A DNA stretch of 64,000 nucleotides, from assembly GCA_038131365.1 (NCBI GenBank), contig JAYPPH010000006.1, positions 120,971 to 184,970 of the forward strand, written 5' to 3'. Positions 1,758-21,047 of the stretch are shown in pieces (position 1 is the first letter of the stretch; every line of letters begins with the position of its first letter). Under the pieces are notes generated by a model, which had not been told where the DNA came from, did not search any database, and saw only the letters and a program-made list of their open reading frames with translations. The translations under genes and the position numbers were made by a program. This DNA is from Candidatus Marisalimonas marina (lineage in GTDB: Bacteria; Pseudomonadota; Alphaproteobacteria; Puniceispirillales; Marisalimonadaceae).

Positions 1758-2743
1758 TTAGTTTCTTTTCCAAAAATATTTCAAAATTTTTCTCATCTTT
1801 TGTATCTAAAGTACTTTCAATTGATAAAACATTTATCTCATTTTTTTTATCTTGAATTTTAACATAGTCTTTTTCAGTTGTTAAAAGTGTTAGGTTTTGA
1901 TTTTTGGCATTTAAAATTAAATTATTAATTTCTTTTTCTGTGTATTGATGATGATCAGGAAATGATTTTTTAGAAATAACATTATACTCATTCTGGTAAA
2001 GTGTATCAAAAAACTTATCAGGATTAGCTAAGGCACAAAATGCAAAAATGTTTGTTGTTTTTGTTTATGGATGATTTAATAATTTTAATAGATGAGTTGA
2101 AAATAGTTTTGTGATTAAATTTATCATTATAATTTATAAACTTTTTATCGTTACCTGTTAAAATGATAGCATCAATATTTTCTAAGCCCTGCTTTGTTGG
2201 CTCTCTAAGTGGCCCAGAAGGAAAACAAAATTCATTTCCAAATTTTAATTTTTTATCAACTAGCAACAATTTAATATCTTGTTCTAATGTATTATTTTGT
2301 AATCCATCATCCATCAAAATTACATTATAATTATTCTTAAGACCCTCGATAAATTTAGCTCCAAGTGATCGATTGGCTGATACTACTGTAGGGCCGACTT
2401 TACTAAGTAATAATGCCTCATCACCAACATCATTAAAATTATGATCAGGTCGGACTTTAACTGGACCTTTTTCTAATCCCTTATATCCTCTTGTTAAAAA
2501 TACAGGTTCATAACCTAACTTTTTTAAAATTTTAAAAGTGTAAATTGTAAAAGGGGTTTTTCCAGTACCCCCAATATTAAGATTACCTACACAAATCACT
2601 TTCAGTTTCGATTTATAAGGTTTAATAAATATTTTTTTAACAAATGAAATTATTATCCAGATTATGGATAAAGGATACAGAGCTAAAGCTATTATGGTAG
2701 ATGATGTATTGTTGTAGTACCAAAATTTTGGTGTTTTAATCAT
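1750..2743 (-). CDS. lpxK: Tetraacyldisaccharide 4'-kinase, with apparent +1 frameshift at the A5 run 2044-2048
   Basis: VICVGNLNIGGTGKTP, LTRGYKG, VGDEALLL, MDDGLQ and FPSGPLREP in ORF 2024-2743. Removing one base gives ...HFAFCALANPDKFF...FPDHHQY...LTTEKDYVKI..., ending TGA at 1750. Confidence 0.92.
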
Positions 2744-8776: not shown

Positions 8777-9721
8777 ATGAAAAAAAATATTTTTATTGAT
8801 GGTGAAAGCGGTACCACTGGCTTGCAAGTATATGAAAGGTTGAATAAACATCCTTATGTAAATATCTTACCGATTGATAACGAAAGAAGGAAAAGTACTT
8901 CTTATAAAAAGGAGATGTTAGCTTCTTGTGATATTGCGTTCTTATGCCTTCCAGATAAAAGTGCAATTGAAACGGTTGAAATCGCAGACCAACTTGGGAA
9001 CGAATCTCCTGTTATCATAGATGCTTCGACTGCGCACAGGACTAATATAGACTGGGCATATGGTCTTCCAGAGTTAGGGCAAAATTATAAAAATAAAATT
9101 TTAGAATCTAAAAGAATAGCTGTTCCTGGATGTTATCCAACTGGAGCTAACCTCATTATCAAACCATTGATTGATTATAAATATATTTCATCTAATAACC
9201 CTTTCATTATAAGTGCAGTTAGCGGGTATTCTGGTGGAGGTAAAGACCTTATTAGATATTTTAAGGAAGAAGATCATGAACCTTTTTTTACTTATGGACT
9301 TAATTTAGATCACAAGCATTTACCTGAGATTAAATTTCACAATAACTTGTCATTAGATCCTATTTTTATGCCATCTGTAGGTGATTTTATCCAGGGCATG
9401 ATAGTTTCTATCCCATTACATTTTTCTTCATTTATTAAAAAAGTAGATACAGAAACAATACAAACTTTCATGGAAGAATTTTATTTAGATTCAAAGTTTG
9501 TGTCGGTATTGAAAAAAAATGAAGGTTTAAATTCCAAAGGTTATCTTAGGCCCGATAATTTAGTAAATACTAATTTCCTAGATATAAGCGTTTTTGGAAA
9601 TGATAAAAATGAGCAACTTGTTATATCTTCTAGATTGGATAACTTAGGCAAGGGCGCATCTGGGGCCGCTATTCAGTGTATGAATTTGGTTTTAGGTTAT
9701 GATGAAGCTTTAGGTTTATAA
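8777..9721 (+). CDS. argC: N-acetyl-gamma-glutamyl-phosphate reductase (type 2)
   Basis: IFIDGESGTTGL, IIDASTAHR, AVPGCYPTG, SGYSGGGK, DNLGKGASGAA. Confidence 0.95.
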   Translation: MKKNIFIDGESGTTGLQVYERLNKHPYVNILPIDNERRKSTSYKKEMLASCDIAFLCLPDKSAIETVEIADQLGNESPVIIDASTAHRTNIDWAYGLPELGQNYKNKILESKRIAVPGCYPTGANLIIKPLIDYKYISSNNPFIISAVSGYSGGGKDLIRYFKEEDHEPFFTYGLNLDHKHLPEIKFHNNLSLDPIFMPSVGDFIQGMIVSIPLHFSSFIKKVDTETIQTFMEEFYLDSKFVSVLKKNEGLNSKGYLRPDNLVNTNFLDISVFGNDKNEQLVISSRLDNLGKGASGAAIQCMNLVLGYDEALGL

Positions 9722-9728
9722 AGTATCT

Positions 9729-10517
9729 ATGAGCTCTTTTGAAGAAAAACCAAGTGCTAAGCATATTGATGAGCTTTTTCCAAATTATTCTTCATTTGAA
9801 AGAGCTGTAAGTTATCCATATCCAGCTCCAGACTTTTCATTTTCTTTTTATAAAGGAGAATTTGTAAAGGGAATACGTCATGATCTAGAAAGTAGGATTC
9901 CTATTCTATCAGTGGGTTCTAATAGATCACCATATCAGTTAAAAAGGAAATTTACTTTAGACGAAGATATTTGCGTTACTCCAGCTATTTTGTTTGATTC
10001 AGATATCGTCTATGCGGCATCAATTTCAGCATATGGATCAGTGCCGGCTACACAGTGGCCAAGTAAGGGTGCTTCAGTAGCACTTAATGTATTATGGTTA
10101 AAAGAGGATCAATTAAATAAAATGCATCTTACTGAGGGGCTTGGCATTGCATACCACTTTGTCAAATTAACTACGGGAACAGTAAAAATAGAAGATTTTG
10201 ATTATACAAAAGATATTTATGGCTATATTTCAGTGCCGGGCGTTTTCCCATTCCAAGATAATCTTCCCCGAAGACTTTCTTCTATAGGTGGAGATAATAT
10301 TAAGCTCAATGAATTTTCAGAAACAAATGCAGTTCTTTATTTAAAAGAGACTATGGGTGATAAAAAGCTATCACTAGACCAGTGGTTAAAGAAAATTATA
10401 AATGATGAAGAATATAGATTTTCAAAACTTAAACTTTTACGTGCCAAAGCAATTAAGCCTAAAAATCCTAACTGGGAAATAGTTAATGTCACTACTAAAG
10501 GCAAGTTAATAGTTTAA
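9729..10517 (+). CDS. Hypothetical protein, possibly gamma-glutamylcyclotransferase-like fold
   Basis: 262-aa ORF starting 7 nt after the argC stop; ILSVGSNRSPYQL and QLNKMHLTEG resemble the GGCT YGSN and LDxxEG motifs (by eye only). Confidence 0.6.
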   Translation: MSSFEEKPSAKHIDELFPNYSSFERAVSYPYPAPDFSFSFYKGEFVKGIRHDLESRIPILSVGSNRSPYQLKRKFTLDEDICVTPAILFDSDIVYAASISAYGSVPATQWPSKGASVALNVLWLKEDQLNKMHLTEGLGIAYHFVKLTTGTVKIEDFDYTKDIYGYISVPGVFPFQDNLPRRLSSIGGDNIKLNEFSETNAVLYLKETMGDKKLSLDQWLKKIINDEEYRFSKLKLLRAKAIKPKNPNWEIVNVTTKGKLIV

Positions 10518-10523
10518 TATTAA

Positions 10524-10730
10524 TTAATTGGTAACTAAATAAGTGCTACTGTGCCATTTAAAAATAGCTATCGTTACTAAAATTAATGTGCCTAATATTA
10601 CATAGTTTAATATTCTTTTACCTTTATCATTCATAGAAGAATTATCTACTTTTTTAATTAAAAGAAAAACAATTCCCGCTAAAATTAAGAACCCTATACC
10701 GCCTATTAATACTGTATCCATAGAAAACAT
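10524..10730 (-). CDS. Small two-helix membrane protein of unknown function
   Basis: 68 aa, two hydrophobic stretches (VLIGGIGFLILAGIVFLLI; ILNYVILGTLILVTIAIF) joined by a Lys-rich loop; AAGGG RBS-like sequence before the ATG; fills the gap cleanly. Confidence 0.7.
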   Translation of the reverse strand: MFSMDTVLIGGIGFLILAGIVFLLIKKVDNSSMNDKGKRILNYVILGTLILVTIAIFKWHSSTYLVTN

Positions 10731-10743
10731 CCCTTATTTTTGT

Positions 10744-10762
10744 AATAATGATTATCATTATC
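10744..10762 (-). promoter_or_regulatory. Fur-box-like operator GATAATGATAATCATTATT
   Basis: Reverse complement of aataatgattatcattatc matches the classical Fur consensus GATAATGATAATCATTATC at 18/19; perfect 8-1-8 palindrome; 13 nt from the small-protein ATG. Confidence 0.7.
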
Positions 10763-10945
10763 AAAATTAAAAACGCATTGAAATCAATAACTTAGATATT
10801 TTTTTCAAAAAAAAATGATTTAAATTAATTTTTATTTGTTGATAATCTTTTAATTCTTTTTTATTGTCACCTTCAAAGTACTAACTAATAGTGCATAAAT
10901 CTAGCATTAGCTAGAATATATGACAAATATAAGGGGAGTTTATAA

Positions 10946-11710
10946 ATGTCTAAATTTTTAAAATATGCCTTACCAGCAGCTTTCATTTCGTCATTACCAT
11001 TCCTGGCTAATGCAGCAGATAGTGCTAACTTAAAGTCAGATGATTTTGTAGGAATTAGTTTCTGGTTAATTTCAATGGCTCTTGTAGCCTCAACTGCTTT
11101 CTTCTTTATGGAAACACAAAGAGTTTCTCCAAAGTGGAAAACATCTTTAACAGTTTCTGGTCTAGTAACTTTAGTTGCTGCAGTTCACTACTTCTACATG
11201 AGAGATGTATGGGTAGGAACTGGTGAGACACCAACTGTTTACAGATACATTGACTGGCTAATTACAGTTCCATTGTTAATGGTAGAATTTTACATTATCC
11301 TTAGAGCATGTACAGCGGTTGCTGGTGGTGTTTTCTGGAAACTAATGATTGGTTCTTTAGTAATGTTAATTGGTGGTTACTTAGGTGAAGCTGGTTACAT
11401 GAACGTAACTCTTGGTTTTGTTATAGGAATGGTTGGTTGGATATACATCCTATATGAGGTATTTGCTGGTGAAGCAAGTAAAGCTAGCGAAGAAGCTCCA
11501 GAGTCAGTTAAGTCAGCTTTCTCTACAATGAGATGGATTGTAACAATTGGTTGGGCAATTTACCCAATCGGTTACTTTATGGGTTATATGGCCGGTGGCG
11601 TGGATGATAATTCACTAAACATTATATATAACTTAGCTGACGTTCTTAATAAGATTGCATTTGGTGTAATTATTTGGAACGTTGCTGTAACTGAATCAGA
11701 AGCAGCATAG
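10946..11710 (+). CDS. prd: Proteorhodopsin, DTE proton pump, green-tuned (Leu105)
   Basis: Signal peptide ending ANA; AAVHYFYMR (His75); YRYIDWLITVPLLMVEF (D97, T101, L105, E108); LADVLNKIAFG (D227, retinal K231); RBS AAGGGGAG at 10931-10938. Confidence 0.98.
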   Translation: MSKFLKYALPAAFISSLPFLANAADSANLKSDDFVGISFWLISMALVASTAFFFMETQRVSPKWKTSLTVSGLVTLVAAVHYFYMRDVWVGTGETPTVYRYIDWLITVPLLMVEFYIILRACTAVAGGVFWKLMIGSLVMLIGGYLGEAGYMNVTLGFVIGMVGWIYILYEVFAGEASKASEEAPESVKSAFSTMRWIVTIGWAIYPIGYFMGYMAGGVDDNSLNIIYNLADVLNKIAFGVIIWNVAVTESEAA

Positions 11711-11799: not shown

Positions 11800-13296
11800 A
11801 TGAAAAGAGAAATCAAAAAAAAATATGAAGTTAGTAGTATTGTTATTGGAGGAGGTTTTGGTGGTATAGCAGCCGCTCTTAGGTTAAGGGCTCTTGGTCA
11901 TGAAGTAACACTTTTAGAAAGATTAGAATCCTTGGGTGGTAGGGCACAAGTATTTAAAAAAAATGGTTATAAACATGATGCTGGTCCAACTGTCATAACA
12001 GCCCCTTTTTTATTTGACGAACTTTTTGAGCTTTTCGATGAAAAAAGGTCAGATTACGTCGAGTTTAAGCCTTTAGATCCATGGTATAGATTCCACTTTC
12101 ATGATGGCCAAACTTTTGATTATTCTCAAACAATTGAAAAAACAAAAGAAGAAATGAAAAGATTTTCGATCAGTGATGCCGAGAATTATGAAAAATTATT
12201 AAACGCTTCTAAATCTATATTTGATGTTGGGTTCACAAAGCTAGCAGACAAACCATTTAACTCATTTTTATTTATGCTAAAACAGATACCTTCTCTATTA
12301 AAACTTAAAAGTTATTTTACAGTTTCCCAATTGGTAAATAAATATATTAAAAATTCTAATTTACGAGCCGCTTTTTCTATTCATCCACTTTTAGTTGGTG
12401 GAAACCCCTTTTCAACGACCTCAATTTACGCCCTTATTCATTTTCTAGAAAGAAATTGGGGTGTTTATTTTAGTATGGGGGGTACAGGAAAATTAGTTGA
12501 AGAATTAACAAAATTATTAGATAGGTCTGGCGTAACAGTAAGGTACAAAGTAGACATTAAAACTGCGTATGAAGAAAATGGATTAATAAGAAAACTAGAA
12601 AGTATGGAAGGTGAAGAGTTTACTGCCGATAATATAATTTTTAATGGTGATCCACCTACCTTTTATAGTGAAATTTTAAACACAGATAGATTTATAAAAA
12701 AACGAAAGAAATTTTTACCAGAAAAATTTACAACTTACTCAATGGGTATGTTTGTTCTTTTTTTTGGAACAAAAAAACAATTTCCTAAAATTGCCCATCA
12801 TTCAATTTGGTTAGGTAAAAGATTTAAAGGTTTATTAACAGATATATTTGATAATAAGATTTTAAGTGAAGATTTCTCATTATATATACATCGACCTACT
12901 GCAACTGATAAAAGCTTTGCACCAAAAGGGTGTGATAGTTTTTATGTATTATGTCCTGTGCCAAATTTACTAGGAAACGTTGATTGGGAAATTGAAGGAC
13001 CTAAACTTCAGAAAAGGATTATTGAGGCCTTAGATAAAACTATCTTACCTGATCTTAATAAGGTTATTTGTGATGACTTCTATATGACACCAAAAGATTT
13101 TAAGACTAATTATCGATCAAAACACGGTGCAGGATTTTCTATTGCTCCAAATTTTTCCCAATCAGCTTGGTTCAGATATCATAATAAAGACCCACATATT
13201 GATAATTTATATTTTGCTGCTGCAGGTGCTCATCCAGGTGCTGGAGTTCCTGGAGTTTTATCTTCGGCTAAAGTTGTAGAAAGTCTTATTAAGTAA
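11800..13296 (+). CDS. crtI: Phytoene desaturase
   Basis: VIGGGFGGIAAALRL FAD motif, HDAGPTVIT, C-terminal HPGAGVPGVLSSAK. Confidence 0.95.
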   Translation: MKREIKKKYEVSSIVIGGGFGGIAAALRLRALGHEVTLLERLESLGGRAQVFKKNGYKHDAGPTVITAPFLFDELFELFDEKRSDYVEFKPLDPWYRFHFHDGQTFDYSQTIEKTKEEMKRFSISDAENYEKLLNASKSIFDVGFTKLADKPFNSFLFMLKQIPSLLKLKSYFTVSQLVNKYIKNSNLRAAFSIHPLLVGGNPFSTTSIYALIHFLERNWGVYFSMGGTGKLVEELTKLLDRSGVTVRYKVDIKTAYEENGLIRKLESMEGEEFTADNIIFNGDPPTFYSEILNTDRFIKKRKKFLPEKFTTYSMGMFVLFFGTKKQFPKIAHHSIWLGKRFKGLLTDIFDNKILSEDFSLYIHRPTATDKSFAPKGCDSFYVLCPVPNLLGNVDWEIEGPKLQKRIIEALDKTILPDLNKVICDDFYMTPKDFKTNYRSKHGAGFSIAPNFSQSAWFRYHNKDPHIDNLYFAAAGAHPGAGVPGVLSSAKVVESLIK

Positions 13297-13308
13297 AAGA
13301 GATTTTAA

Positions 13309-14214
13309 ATGGATACCCATATTCAAGATGCAAAATTAATTCTAAAAGAAAATGGGAAAAGTTTTAATTGGGCAGGTAAATTTTTACCGAGTAAATATAC
13401 TAATAGAGCTGCTGAGTTATATAGCTTTTGTAGAATTCTAGATGATATAGCCGATAGTGGAGATTCATTTTCTTTAGAGCAACTAAAGGGTATTAAAAGC
13501 TATCTTGTAAAAAATGATAAAAAATCAATATCAGGAATAAATTTCCCCAAATATTTTAATTCACTATCAAAAAAAGCTGCTATTGATTTGGTTGATGGTC
13601 TAATCTTAGATCAAAATTCTGTCTCTTTTGATAATCAATCTGAATTAATAAGATATTCTTATCAGGTAGCAGGAACCGTAGGGTTAATGATGTGTGATGC
13701 CTTAGAATGTAAGGATAAAAATGCGAATTTGTTTGCAATTGATCTTGGCATTGCAATGCAGCTCACAAATATTGCAAGAGACGTGTTGGAAGATGCAAGT
13801 ATGGGAAGAAGGTATCTGCCTGGAGCTTGGGTGAATAATCTATCGGCTAACGAAATAGTAAAAGCGGCTGAAAAAGGTGATGAGAAAAAAATTGAGATTG
13901 TTTCACTAGGAATAAAGAAATTATTAAATTTATCTGAAAAATATTATCTGAGTGGATCACAAGGGTTAGTTTATTTACCTTTAAAAATCAGAGTTGCTAT
14001 TTCAATTGCTGGTGGAGTTTATAGAGAAATAGGTATTCAACTAAAAAATGAAAATTATAATTGGCATATGGGTCGTCAAGTAACATCAAATATTACTAAG
14101 GCAAAAATTTCAGCAAAAAAAATCTTAACTGAAATTTTTAAGAAAAAAATTTATATTAATCATAAATCTGAACTTCATAAATATTTAAAAGAGTTTTACC
14201 CAATTGAAGTATAG
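13309..14214 (+). CDS. crtB: Phytoene synthase
   Basis: GKSFNWA, LYSFCRILDDIAD, YSYQVAGTVGLMM, LGIAMQLTNIARDVLEDA. Confidence 0.95.
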   Translation: MDTHIQDAKLILKENGKSFNWAGKFLPSKYTNRAAELYSFCRILDDIADSGDSFSLEQLKGIKSYLVKNDKKSISGINFPKYFNSLSKKAAIDLVDGLILDQNSVSFDNQSELIRYSYQVAGTVGLMMCDALECKDKNANLFAIDLGIAMQLTNIARDVLEDASMGRRYLPGAWVNNLSANEIVKAAEKGDEKKIEIVSLGIKKLLNLSEKYYLSGSQGLVYLPLKIRVAISIAGGVYREIGIQLKNENYNWHMGRQVTSNITKAKISAKKILTEIFKKKIYINHKSELHKYLKEFYPIEV

Positions 14215-15313
14215 TCAAATTGATATAATAGGAGGAGGATGTGCAGCTTTTTCATTAGCTAGGCTCATTAAAAAAACTTCATTAAATAATATTAATTTAT
14301 TTCTTGGTAAAAACTTCGATTTGAACAAGGACCATTTTTGGGGTTTTTGGAAAAATGAATTTAATGAAGATGCTTATAAAAATGCAGATCATATCTGGTA
14401 TAAATGGTCTATATGTACAGAAAACTCTAATATAATTCTCTCTTCTAAAACACACCCTTATTGCGTAATAAAGAAAAAAAAATGGCTAAGCTTTTGTCAA
14501 TCTGAGCTTAAAAACATCAAGGTTAATTATATAAAAGAAAATGTTATTGAAAGTGATAATGCTCTATTTGTTAATGATAAAGAAATAAATAGCGAATTAA
14601 TTTTTGATAGTAGACCTCCTGAAATTCCTTCAAATATCATGTTACAACATTTCCAAGGTTATGTAGTTGAGACTAAAGAAGATGTGTTTGATGATGCAAC
14701 TGCAATTCTGATGGATTTTAGATGTGACCAATCTAGAGGTATTCATTTTATTTATTTACTACCCTTTAGTAAAAAAAAAGCGTTAGTTGAATCAACAATG
14801 TTTTCAAAAAAAATTCAAAGTAAAAGCTTTTATAAAAGCGAGATCTCTAACTATCTTAAGAAACATTTTAATTTGACCTCCTTTACAACTAGTCACTATG
14901 AGGAGGGTGTAATACCGATGCATCAAATTTCAATTAAATCTCAATGCAGTCTTAGTATTGGTACAAGAGGAGGAGCTGTAAGACCCTCTTCTGGATATGC
15001 ATTTACTTTTATTCAAAAACAAGTATTTCAAATTTTTAACCAAATAAGGAAAGGTACTTTTATAAATACAAAAATTCATAATAATTTAGATCTGTTTTTA
15101 GATAAGGTTTTTATAAGTGTGATAGATAAATACCCTCAGTTAGCTCCTAAGATTTTTTCTAGTTTGGCAAGTAAATTAAGTGGAGATGAAATGGCACAGT
15201 TTATGTCAGGTGAATGTTCTAAATTAACAATATTTAAAGTAATTTTTGCTATGCCCAAACTACCTTTTATTAAATCTTTTATGTTGATGTTATTATCTAA
15301 TGCTAGAAATTAA
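14204..15313 (+). CDS. crtY: Lycopene beta-cyclase (TTG start overlapping crtB)
   Basis: IIGGGCAAFSLA, IFDSRP, LMDFR, FIYLLPFS, EEGVIPM, GGAVRPSSGYAF; position between crtB and blh. Confidence 0.88.
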   Translation: MKYSQIDIIGGGCAAFSLARLIKKTSLNNINLFLGKNFDLNKDHFWGFWKNEFNEDAYKNADHIWYKWSICTENSNIILSSKTHPYCVIKKKKWLSFCQSELKNIKVNYIKENVIESDNALFVNDKEINSELIFDSRPPEIPSNIMLQHFQGYVVETKEDVFDDATAILMDFRCDQSRGIHFIYLLPFSKKKALVESTMFSKKIQSKSFYKSEISNYLKKHFNLTSFTTSHYEEGVIPMHQISIKSQCSLSIGTRGGAVRPSSGYAFTFIQKQVFQIFNQIRKGTFINTKIHNNLDLFLDKVFISVIDKYPQLAPKIFSSLASKLSGDEMAQFMSGECSKLTIFKVIFAMPKLPFIKSFMLMLLSNARN

Positions 15314-16121
15314 TTTATATTGGTGGGATTATTTATCCTTTTTTTTAATTTTTTTTGTGGGTATACCTCATGGAGCCTTAGATGGTGCTATTTCAATAAC
15401 ATTAGGGTACTCAAAAAAAATTAGTCTCCAAATTCGTTTTCTAATAAGTTATTTATTATTCTCAAGTGTAATATTAATTTTTTGGTATTATTTTCCAGTT
15501 ATCTCACTAATAACTTTTATTTTAATAAGTATATTTCATTTTGGATGTGGTGATTTAAAATGGAATGCTGATAATTTTTACTATATCAGAGGTTATGTTC
15601 ATGGCAGTTTAATAGTTTTAGGAATAATTTTTCTAAATCCAAGTGAGGTAGAGCAATTCTTTAAAATTTTATCTGGCAATAATTTATCTTTATTATGGAT
15701 GTCTTTAAAAGCCATGCTTTTGTTTTGTGGTTTATCAATAATTTTCTTATTGATAAATTATAAAACAATAAATTTCTCTATTGATTATTTGAAATTAATG
15801 TTTCCAATCATTTTAATAATTTCCTTTTTTCCACCTTTATTAGCCTTTGCGCTATATTTTTGTTTTATACACAGCTTTAATCACATGAAAAGAATAATAC
15901 CAACTTTGTTTAACTTTATGAATAAAGCAAAAGCTATCTGGTTAATGGTAATATTTTCTTTACTAAGTTGGTTGGGAGGTGCATTCGCATTATATTATTT
16001 ATCATTTAACTTCAACCAAAATGAAGCTTTAATTAAAGTTATTTTTATTGGACTGGCTGCTTTAACGTTTCCGCATATGGTTCTTGTTGATGGTTTCTTT
16101 AGGCAGAAATTTAAAATTTAG
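15300..16121 (+). CDS. blh: Beta-carotene 15,15'-dioxygenase (Brp/Blh)
   Basis: GIPHGALD, SIFHFG, FCFIHSFNH, LAALTFPHMVLVD: four-His pattern in a polytopic membrane protein. Confidence 0.93.
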   Translation: MLEINLYWWDYLSFFLIFFVGIPHGALDGAISITLGYSKKISLQIRFLISYLLFSSVILIFWYYFPVISLITFILISIFHFGCGDLKWNADNFYYIRGYVHGSLIVLGIIFLNPSEVEQFFKILSGNNLSLLWMSLKAMLLFCGLSIIFLLINYKTINFSIDYLKLMFPIILIISFFPPLLAFALYFCFIHSFNHMKRIIPTLFNFMNKAKAIWLMVIFSLLSWLGGAFALYYLSFNFNQNEALIKVIFIGLAALTFPHMVLVDGFFRQKFKI

Positions 16122-20778: not shown

Positions 20779-21047
20779 TATTAAACCTGATTTTAATTTC
20801 TGAACTAATAATAAAATGGCAGTATTGTTTCTATTCTGCAAGGTTTAACACAAAATAAAGTTTTACGGTATTTCAGGTTGAATTTTAATTGATTTTTTAA
20901 AATTATTTGTTTTTAGATCTAGTATTTTTGTTAAAAAAGTTTTAAGTAATAAATATAAAATAATGATAAAAATCATTTTAATTTTTAGCAATAAACTTCC
21001 TTAATAACAGTGGATTGTTTCAAGTTAAAGTTTGAGGAGTAAACATA

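Follow-up and report, generated by a model that had tools for sequence, protein, structure and literature searches.

The window, the whole 64,000-nucleotide stretch analysed here, contains argC (8777-9721), a gene for a 262-aa protein (9729-10517), a small gene on the minus strand, the proteorhodopsin (PR) gene and a set of retinal pathway genes, in this order (Table 1). The pump gene followed by crtI, crtB, crtY and blh makes this a proteorhodopsin photosystem cluster. The 262-aa protein matches no Pfam or NCBIfam model, and it is conserved at this place, upstream of the small gene, in the majority of low-GC SAR116 loci. PR and the small gene are transcribed divergently from a control region of 215 bp. 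The closest PR loci in a one-genome-per-species collection belong to uncultured alphaproteobacteria and SAR116 with a GC content of about 30%, and include the complete genome of Candidatus Levibacter sp. Uisw_134_01 (NZ_CP159808.1; Puniceispirillales; locus L004). The window itself has about 30-31% GC, slightly above the 28% given in an earlier note on this DNA, and its lineage is the low-GC (LGC) SAR116 subclade (Levibacteraceae). Genomes of this subclade are reported to be streamlined, with intergenic spacers of less than 22 bp (PMC8547437; PMC12421898), so that a conserved spacer of 215 bp is unusual for them.

Table 1. Genes and sequence elements at the proteorhodopsin locus (positions within the window)
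Feature	Position	Strand	Remarks
65-aa protein gene, two predicted membrane helices	10524..10721	-	orphan family, motif MDTVLxGG...KR...WHSxxY; divergent to PR
Small-gene Shine-Dalgarno sequence AAGGGA	10730..10735	-	read directly
21-bp (7-1-7)x2 putative operator	10743..10763	.	two overlapping TGATAATNATTATCA motifs, 10743-10757 and 10749-10763, one mismatch each
Fur-box-like 19-bp sequence GATAATGATAATCATTATT	10744..10762	-	18/19 to consensus; perfect 8-1-8 palindrome
Conserved block AAATCAATAACTTAG	10781..10795	+	between box and PR -35; fits IHF consensus WATCAANNNNTTR
PR promoter	10839..10867	+	-35 TTGATA 10839-10844, 17-nt spacer, -10 TATTGT 10862-10867
PR mRNA 5'-end interval	10870..10894	+	contig starts 10870, 10892, 10894; adapter junctions 10882, 10885, 10894 (twice)
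Structured PR 5' leader	10878..10950	+	three hairpins: 10878-10894, 10900-10915, 10922-10950
Proteorhodopsin (PR) gene, 254 aa	10946..11710	+	Bac_rhodopsin PF01036, E 1.3e-51
Retinal pathway genes crtI, crtB, lycopene cyclase, blh	11800..16121	+	downstream of PR; NCBIfam

The earlier note had drawn attention to a palindromic Fur-box match on the minus strand of the control region, and direct reading bears it out. The 19-bp sequence GATAATGATAATCATTATT (plus strand AATAATGATTATCATTATC) is identical at 18 of 19 positions to the classical Fur consensus GATAATGATAATCATTATC, which is that of E. coli, and contains the perfect palindrome ATAATGAT-A-ATCATTAT. Under the 7-1-7 model of Bacillus subtilis Fur boxes, reportedly owed to Baichoo and Helmann in 2002, the site extends to 21 bp with two overlapping motifs, and its core at 10749-10763 is the part conserved between clades. 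Such a match is also rare: dinucleotide shuffles gave 0.01 chance matches to the 19-bp consensus per window at two or fewer mismatches and 0.07 at three or fewer, 7-1-7 matches of this quality are expected by chance about 0.13 times per window, and the second-best 19-mer of the window reaches 15/19. Among 86 related loci (about 525 kb), all 7-1-7 matches with at most one mismatch lie upstream of PR (12 loci, five of them perfect), as do nearly all matches of at least 15/19. The site is a real, non-random Fur-type palindrome, far beyond chance expectation, and it is probably also a functional operator of a Fur-family regulator, to judge from its sequence and conservation.

Fur boxes consist of -10-like hexamers, and several predicted promoter-like matches overlap the box. 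In a genome of about 30% GC the site could conceivably be bound by nothing, being an AT-rich promoter or UP-like element of the small gene whose GATAAT -10-like hexamers resemble a Fur box by chance, and the box is indeed dispensable in four related loci that are described below. This explanation is very improbable, however, given the chance expectation of 0.01 per window, the absence of any comparable match elsewhere in the 525 kb of similarly AT-rich related DNA, and the retention of both half-sites over at least 15 bp across clades, even where the small gene is dead.

With regard to the identity of the regulator, the 7-1-7 motifs of B. subtilis carry discriminating bases, namely TGAT...ATCA for Fur, TTAT...ATAA for PerR and TCGT...ACGA for Zur, and by comparison with these motifs the box is of the Fur type and of neither the PerR nor the Zur type. 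That the three B. subtilis Fur homologues are told apart by such bases is attributed to Fuangthong and Helmann (2003) where that work is cited in PMC2864753. An FNR/CRP-type reading of the box, TTGAT-N4-ATCAA, was rejected, as it fits at just 8/10 positions by inspection. With E. coli Fur and Rhizobium Mur as tblastn queries, the window, the 10 kb on either side of it and 80 PR loci yielded no fur-family gene, and the same regions hold no iron-uptake genes; a database search with Rhizobium Mur retrieved only Rhizobiales Fur proteins and no SAR116 match. The iron supply of SAR116 is reported to depend mainly on afuABC (PMC12262181). In alphaproteobacteria outside Rhizobiales and Rhodobacterales, a Fur-type palindromic box has been predicted for iron-uptake genes, whereas the Fur homologue of these two orders senses manganese (PMC1698941).

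The latter observation raises the alternative that another regulator binds, either a manganese-responsive Mur-type protein, a further Fur-family member or an unrelated dimeric factor, and that the signal is not iron. The alphaproteobacterial Fur-alpha box only resembles the classical one (PMC1698941), and among SAR11 the genome HTCC1062 yielded no classical Fur box (PMC3090418), this negative report being the sole result of the literature searched for a Fur box in connection with PR or SAR116. Nevertheless, such a regulator appears quite unlikely, as the match to the classical box is 18/19, five orthologous sites are perfect 7-1-7 motifs, the discriminating bases are those of Fur, the FNR/CRP-type fit is poor, and SAR116 belongs to neither of the two orders where Fur gave way to Mur, Irr and RirA. 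Elsewhere in the window, a weak Fur-like palindrome, AATGAT-AAAA-ATCATT (20959-20980), lies about 70-90 nt upstream of the coxB-coxA-ctaB-ctaG-coxC-SURF1 operon; as a Fur box this site (20959-20977) was rejected, since it matches at 14/19 with a wrong half-site spacing.

For the small gene, the distances from the box to the two start codons that had been reported earlier, 13 nt to the ATG of a 68-aa reading frame and about 180 nt to that of PR, are exactly 13 nt (ATG at 10730) and 183 nt (ATG at 10946). The 68-aa product itself does not stand. The longer frame (10524-10730) begins at the first ATG, while all homologues start with M-D-T-V-L-x-G-G, which corresponds to the second ATG at 10721; this conserved start, preceded by a Shine-Dalgarno sequence 8 nt upstream, indicates that the real product has 65 aa. 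The end of the box is consequently 22 nt from the true start codon and 8 nt from the Shine-Dalgarno sequence, and because of the latter distance any small-gene mRNA led by this Shine-Dalgarno sequence must begin within or upstream of the box. No promoter of the small gene could be assigned from the sequence, as the candidate -35/-10 pairs are poor.

By inspection, the small protein has two hydrophobic helices separated by a loop rich in lysine and arginine, followed by a conserved W-H-S-x-x-Y tail; residues D2, L5 and G7 are invariant and H57 almost invariant. A DUF4870/Tic20-like identity was discarded because the score of 21.1 bits falls below the Pfam gathering cut-off of 25. A profile search gathered 202 clusters of the family, a Pfam domain is recorded for none of the best 120 of these 202 clusters, and the names given to members in the source are clearly spurious; the family is an orphan one with no Pfam assignment. 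An intact copy of the gene lies divergently upstream of PR in 40 of 80 PR loci (tblastn, E<1e-3), the family loci including L001-L009, L012-L033 and others, and L081-L086. These pairs of small gene and PR span SAR116 and HIMB59-type genomes with 30-58% GC. In addition, all three distant family members (26-39% identity) divergently adjoin a Bac_rhodopsin gene, with other neighbours that differ. Such persistent adjacency makes the small gene a conserved genomic partner of PR, so that its description in the earlier note as a small membrane protein gene beside PR was well founded, and its product is a candidate PR accessory protein.

The PR gene has a promoter and a leader of its own. Relatives keep the promoter as TTGTTGATwAAC...TTTATTGT. 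The predicted fold of the leader (10875-10950) has a minimum free energy of -17.2 kcal/mol and a z-score of -3.6. Its third hairpin pairs a conserved ACAUGACA block with the Shine-Dalgarno/AUG region, and the first is kept as a hairpin despite differing in sequence between clades; the hairpins may serve translational control of PR. No Rfam match was obtained in the window or in the intergenic region. The conserved block AAATCAATAACTTAG could be regarded as a site for IHF, and this is a lead only; the consensus WATCAANNNNTTR is not enriched in the window (18 occurrences found versus 12.75 expected).

Metatranscriptome contigs of 12 runs were placed on the window. PR contigs have a depth of about 40-2000 in 11 of the 12 runs (run X7 gave no PR contig at 95% likeness), and none of the high-depth PR contigs in the 12 runs reaches upstream of 10870. 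In the related lineage L068, two runs gave contigs that begin at 2926 and carry fold-back loose ends; this position is 8 nt past the conserved -10 TATTGT, and by homology it places the PR start of the window at about 10875. With the centre of the 7-1-7 core (10756) accordingly at about -119 relative to this start, the box is too distant to occlude the PR promoter in the classical manner. Contigs over the small gene have a depth of only 2-4, and all but one end at or before 10753, the exception being a contig of depth 3.2 from run X4 (10669-10844); as these contigs are unstranded, part of them may stem from read-through of the convergent 262-aa gene. The great abundance of PR transcripts beside a barely covered small-gene region argues that PR is not classically repressed via the box, and the difference in depth fits a repressed small gene next to an active PR gene. 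The earlier placement of the box in a promoter shared by both genes can thus be kept for the small gene, in whose promoter-proximal or leader region the box lies, but not for PR, which has its own promoter and 5' ends about 119 bp away.

With respect to taxonomic distribution, a Fur-like site is found at the same position, about 190 bp before the true PR ATG, in 11 LGC species (L002-L006, L068, L069, L073, L074, L079 and L080). The conservation that had been set as a check on the box is therefore seen in part of the subclade; the box is degraded to 13/19 in L001, whose PR is the most similar to that of the window, and absent in L007-L009, with the small gene intact in all four. None of the higher-GC SAR116 and HIMB59-type loci examined has it either, and most lineages with the PR/small-gene pair are box-less. 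These comparisons make the box a lineage-specific element, confined among LGC genomes to part of the subclade.

The geometry of the site is rigid on both sides. The distance from the small-gene ATG to the box centre is 34-35 nt wherever the start survives (nine loci, including L068 and L079, in which the reading frame is otherwise decayed), and together with the 8 nt between box and Shine-Dalgarno sequence this favours the small gene as the target. Relative to the small gene, the putative operator is placed as in classical repression by Fur. On the other side, of the 12 LGC sequences that carry the box (the window and 11 loci, L054 not included), 11 have their box centre 105-106 bp from the PR -10, although indels occur among relatives in the PR leader and in the remnant of the small gene; L002 gives 112, as the overlapping 7-1-7 motif, shifted by 6 bp, is the better match there.

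The box has also been kept, with zero or one mismatch to the 7-1-7 motif, after two independent losses of the small gene. The first concerns an AAA536-G10-type clade of five species, which share stop codons and lost start codons and none of which has an intact reading frame (remnants in L068, L069, L073, L079 and L080 at about 2590-2790); the second concerns L074, in which a deletion of about 100 nt is accompanied by loss of the start (remnant at about 2000-2110). Decay of this gene was thus seen twice in genomes that are streamlined and said to contain few pseudogenes. In the five-species clade, 14 of the 15 bp of the core are invariant compared with 65% of the gene remnant (Fisher p=0.018, about 0.02, on few closely related species) and 72% of PR third codon positions. 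The twelfth locus with a 7-1-7 match, L054, belongs to another lineage and has a different distance to PR: this 42%-GC Rhodospirillales MAG, which has no small gene, carries a 37-nt palindrome (2817-2853), CTAATTTATGATAAT-CATTATT-ATTATCATAAATTAG, with perfect arms and Fur-like hexamers, about 100 nt upstream of the PR ATG. RNA contigs of L054 from two runs begin at 2671 and cross the palindrome, and no clear promoter is predicted there.

Taken as a whole, the best explanation of these observations, still a tentative one with somewhat less than an even chance of being correct, is a Fur-family operator, most likely of Fe(II)-Fur, that keeps the small PR-linked gene off as long as iron suffices. 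Under iron sufficiency, putative Fur dimers would occupy the -10, start and leader region of the small gene and block its transcription, and under iron starvation the small protein would be made. This protein, being strictly PR-linked, would then modify the assembly or function of PR. PR itself would be driven by its separate, strong sigma-70-type promoter without being occluded, and any effect of Fur on PR would be distal.

Retention of the box after loss of the small gene is, however, unexpected if repression of this gene is the sole role of the box. This retention, the loss of the box in four lineages that keep the gene and the fixed spacing of 105-106 bp make a distal effect on PR a live rival to repression of the small gene alone: Fur bound at about -119 may modulate the PR promoter through activation, anti-silencing or spreading along the AT-rich spacer, perhaps with a bend at the IHF-like block. 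The near-invariant core in the five-species clade and the palindrome of L054 are in line with this possibility, and distal upstream Fur operators are known to activate genes elsewhere, as for norB, pan1 and nuoA of Neisseria meningitidis and, by antagonism of H-NS, for ftnA of E. coli. The site of the window resembles these in that its centre precedes the start of an unrepressed gene by about 100 bp or more, an analogy of position only. An operator acting on PR is nevertheless rather doubtful, and it is compatible with repression of the small gene. A centre at -119 is far from the binding site of RNA polymerase, PR transcripts are high in 11 of 12 runs, the PR promoter and leader are equally conserved in the box-less L007-L009, the clade comparison comes from a handful of close relatives, and in L054 the palindrome is itself spanned by RNA contigs that begin upstream of it. 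For the SAR116 isolate IMCC1322, moreover, constitutive expression of PR has been reported (PMC12262181).

Both effects may also be combined, in that a Fur-controlled 65-aa accessory subunit of PR would be switched on under iron starvation while PR is tuned by a distal, phased action of the same operator; this joint reading is speculative and would seem improbable at present. The earlier proposal of an iron-starvation phototrophy module is partly supported, by the conserved Fur-type site at a partner gene of PR. As an account of PR itself it is a reasonable but unproven extrapolation, since PR is strongly expressed and not occluded.

Like the classical Fur boxes of iron-uptake genes, the window site combines an 18/19 match with two overlapping 7-1-7 motifs just upstream of a ribosome-binding site, but it adjoins PR and an orphan membrane-protein gene rather than iron-uptake genes, and its host is a streamlined marine alphaproteobacterium. 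In E. coli, fepA-fes and fepD-ybdA are Fur-controlled bidirectional promoters with close or overlapping transcription starts, both sides of which are repressed. The arrangement studied here is similar in having a single putative operator in a divergent intergenic region between two transcription units; it differs in that some 120 bp or more lie between the site and the PR start and that PR is strongly expressed. The site also shares with the Fur-alpha regulons described by Rodionov et al. 2006 (PMC1698941) a palindromic site of the Fur type in an alphaproteobacterium outside Rhizobiales and Rhodobacterales, and such regulons can reach past uptake genes, for instance to the magnetosome genes of Magnetospirillum (PMC1698941). 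In contrast to the sites of that set, in which SAR116 was not included and which were said to have 'some resemblance' to the classical box, the window site is closer to the γ-proteobacterial and Bacillus consensus. It may therefore be regarded as a new putative member of the Fur regulon type, with targets that differ from those of known members.

Rhodopsins of eukaryotic phytoplankton have been linked to iron limitation, for example in Southern Ocean diatoms (PMC10523587). The concept of rhodopsin as an iron-free source of energy under iron stress is common to both cases; the diatom case concerns eukaryotic expression and physiology, whereas the present one is a cis-element read from sequence. 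No report of a cis-regulatory iron element beside a bacterial PR was found in the literature searched. The regulation of PR in heterotrophic bacteria is poorly understood, with constitutive expression reported in cultured SAR11 and SAR116 strains. Large regions of the ocean are iron-limited, and pumping by rhodopsin does not require the metal. A conserved Fur-type operator in a PR control region would be the first sequence-level handle on a link between iron and phototrophy in an abundant clade. If the joint reading were true, it would provide the first cis-regulatory connection between iron sensing and PR in marine heterotrophic bacteria as well as the first proposed function for the conserved PR-partner protein. 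The finding also highlights the 65-aa membrane protein, an orphan whose gene is linked to PR in the genomes of SAR116 and HIMB59-type bacteria. As cultured Ca. Levibacter sp. Uisw_134_01 carries the box (7-1-7 with one mismatch), an intact small gene and PR, the proposed regulation is directly testable.

A separate observation concerns lpxK (1758-2743, minus strand), which encodes 239 aa in the window compared with 330 aa in the near-identical contig L088. The frames diverge near the 3' end of the window reading frame, beside a short A run (in the lpxK sense), leaving about the last 90 codons in a different frame; the difference is either a sequencing error or a real frameshift.
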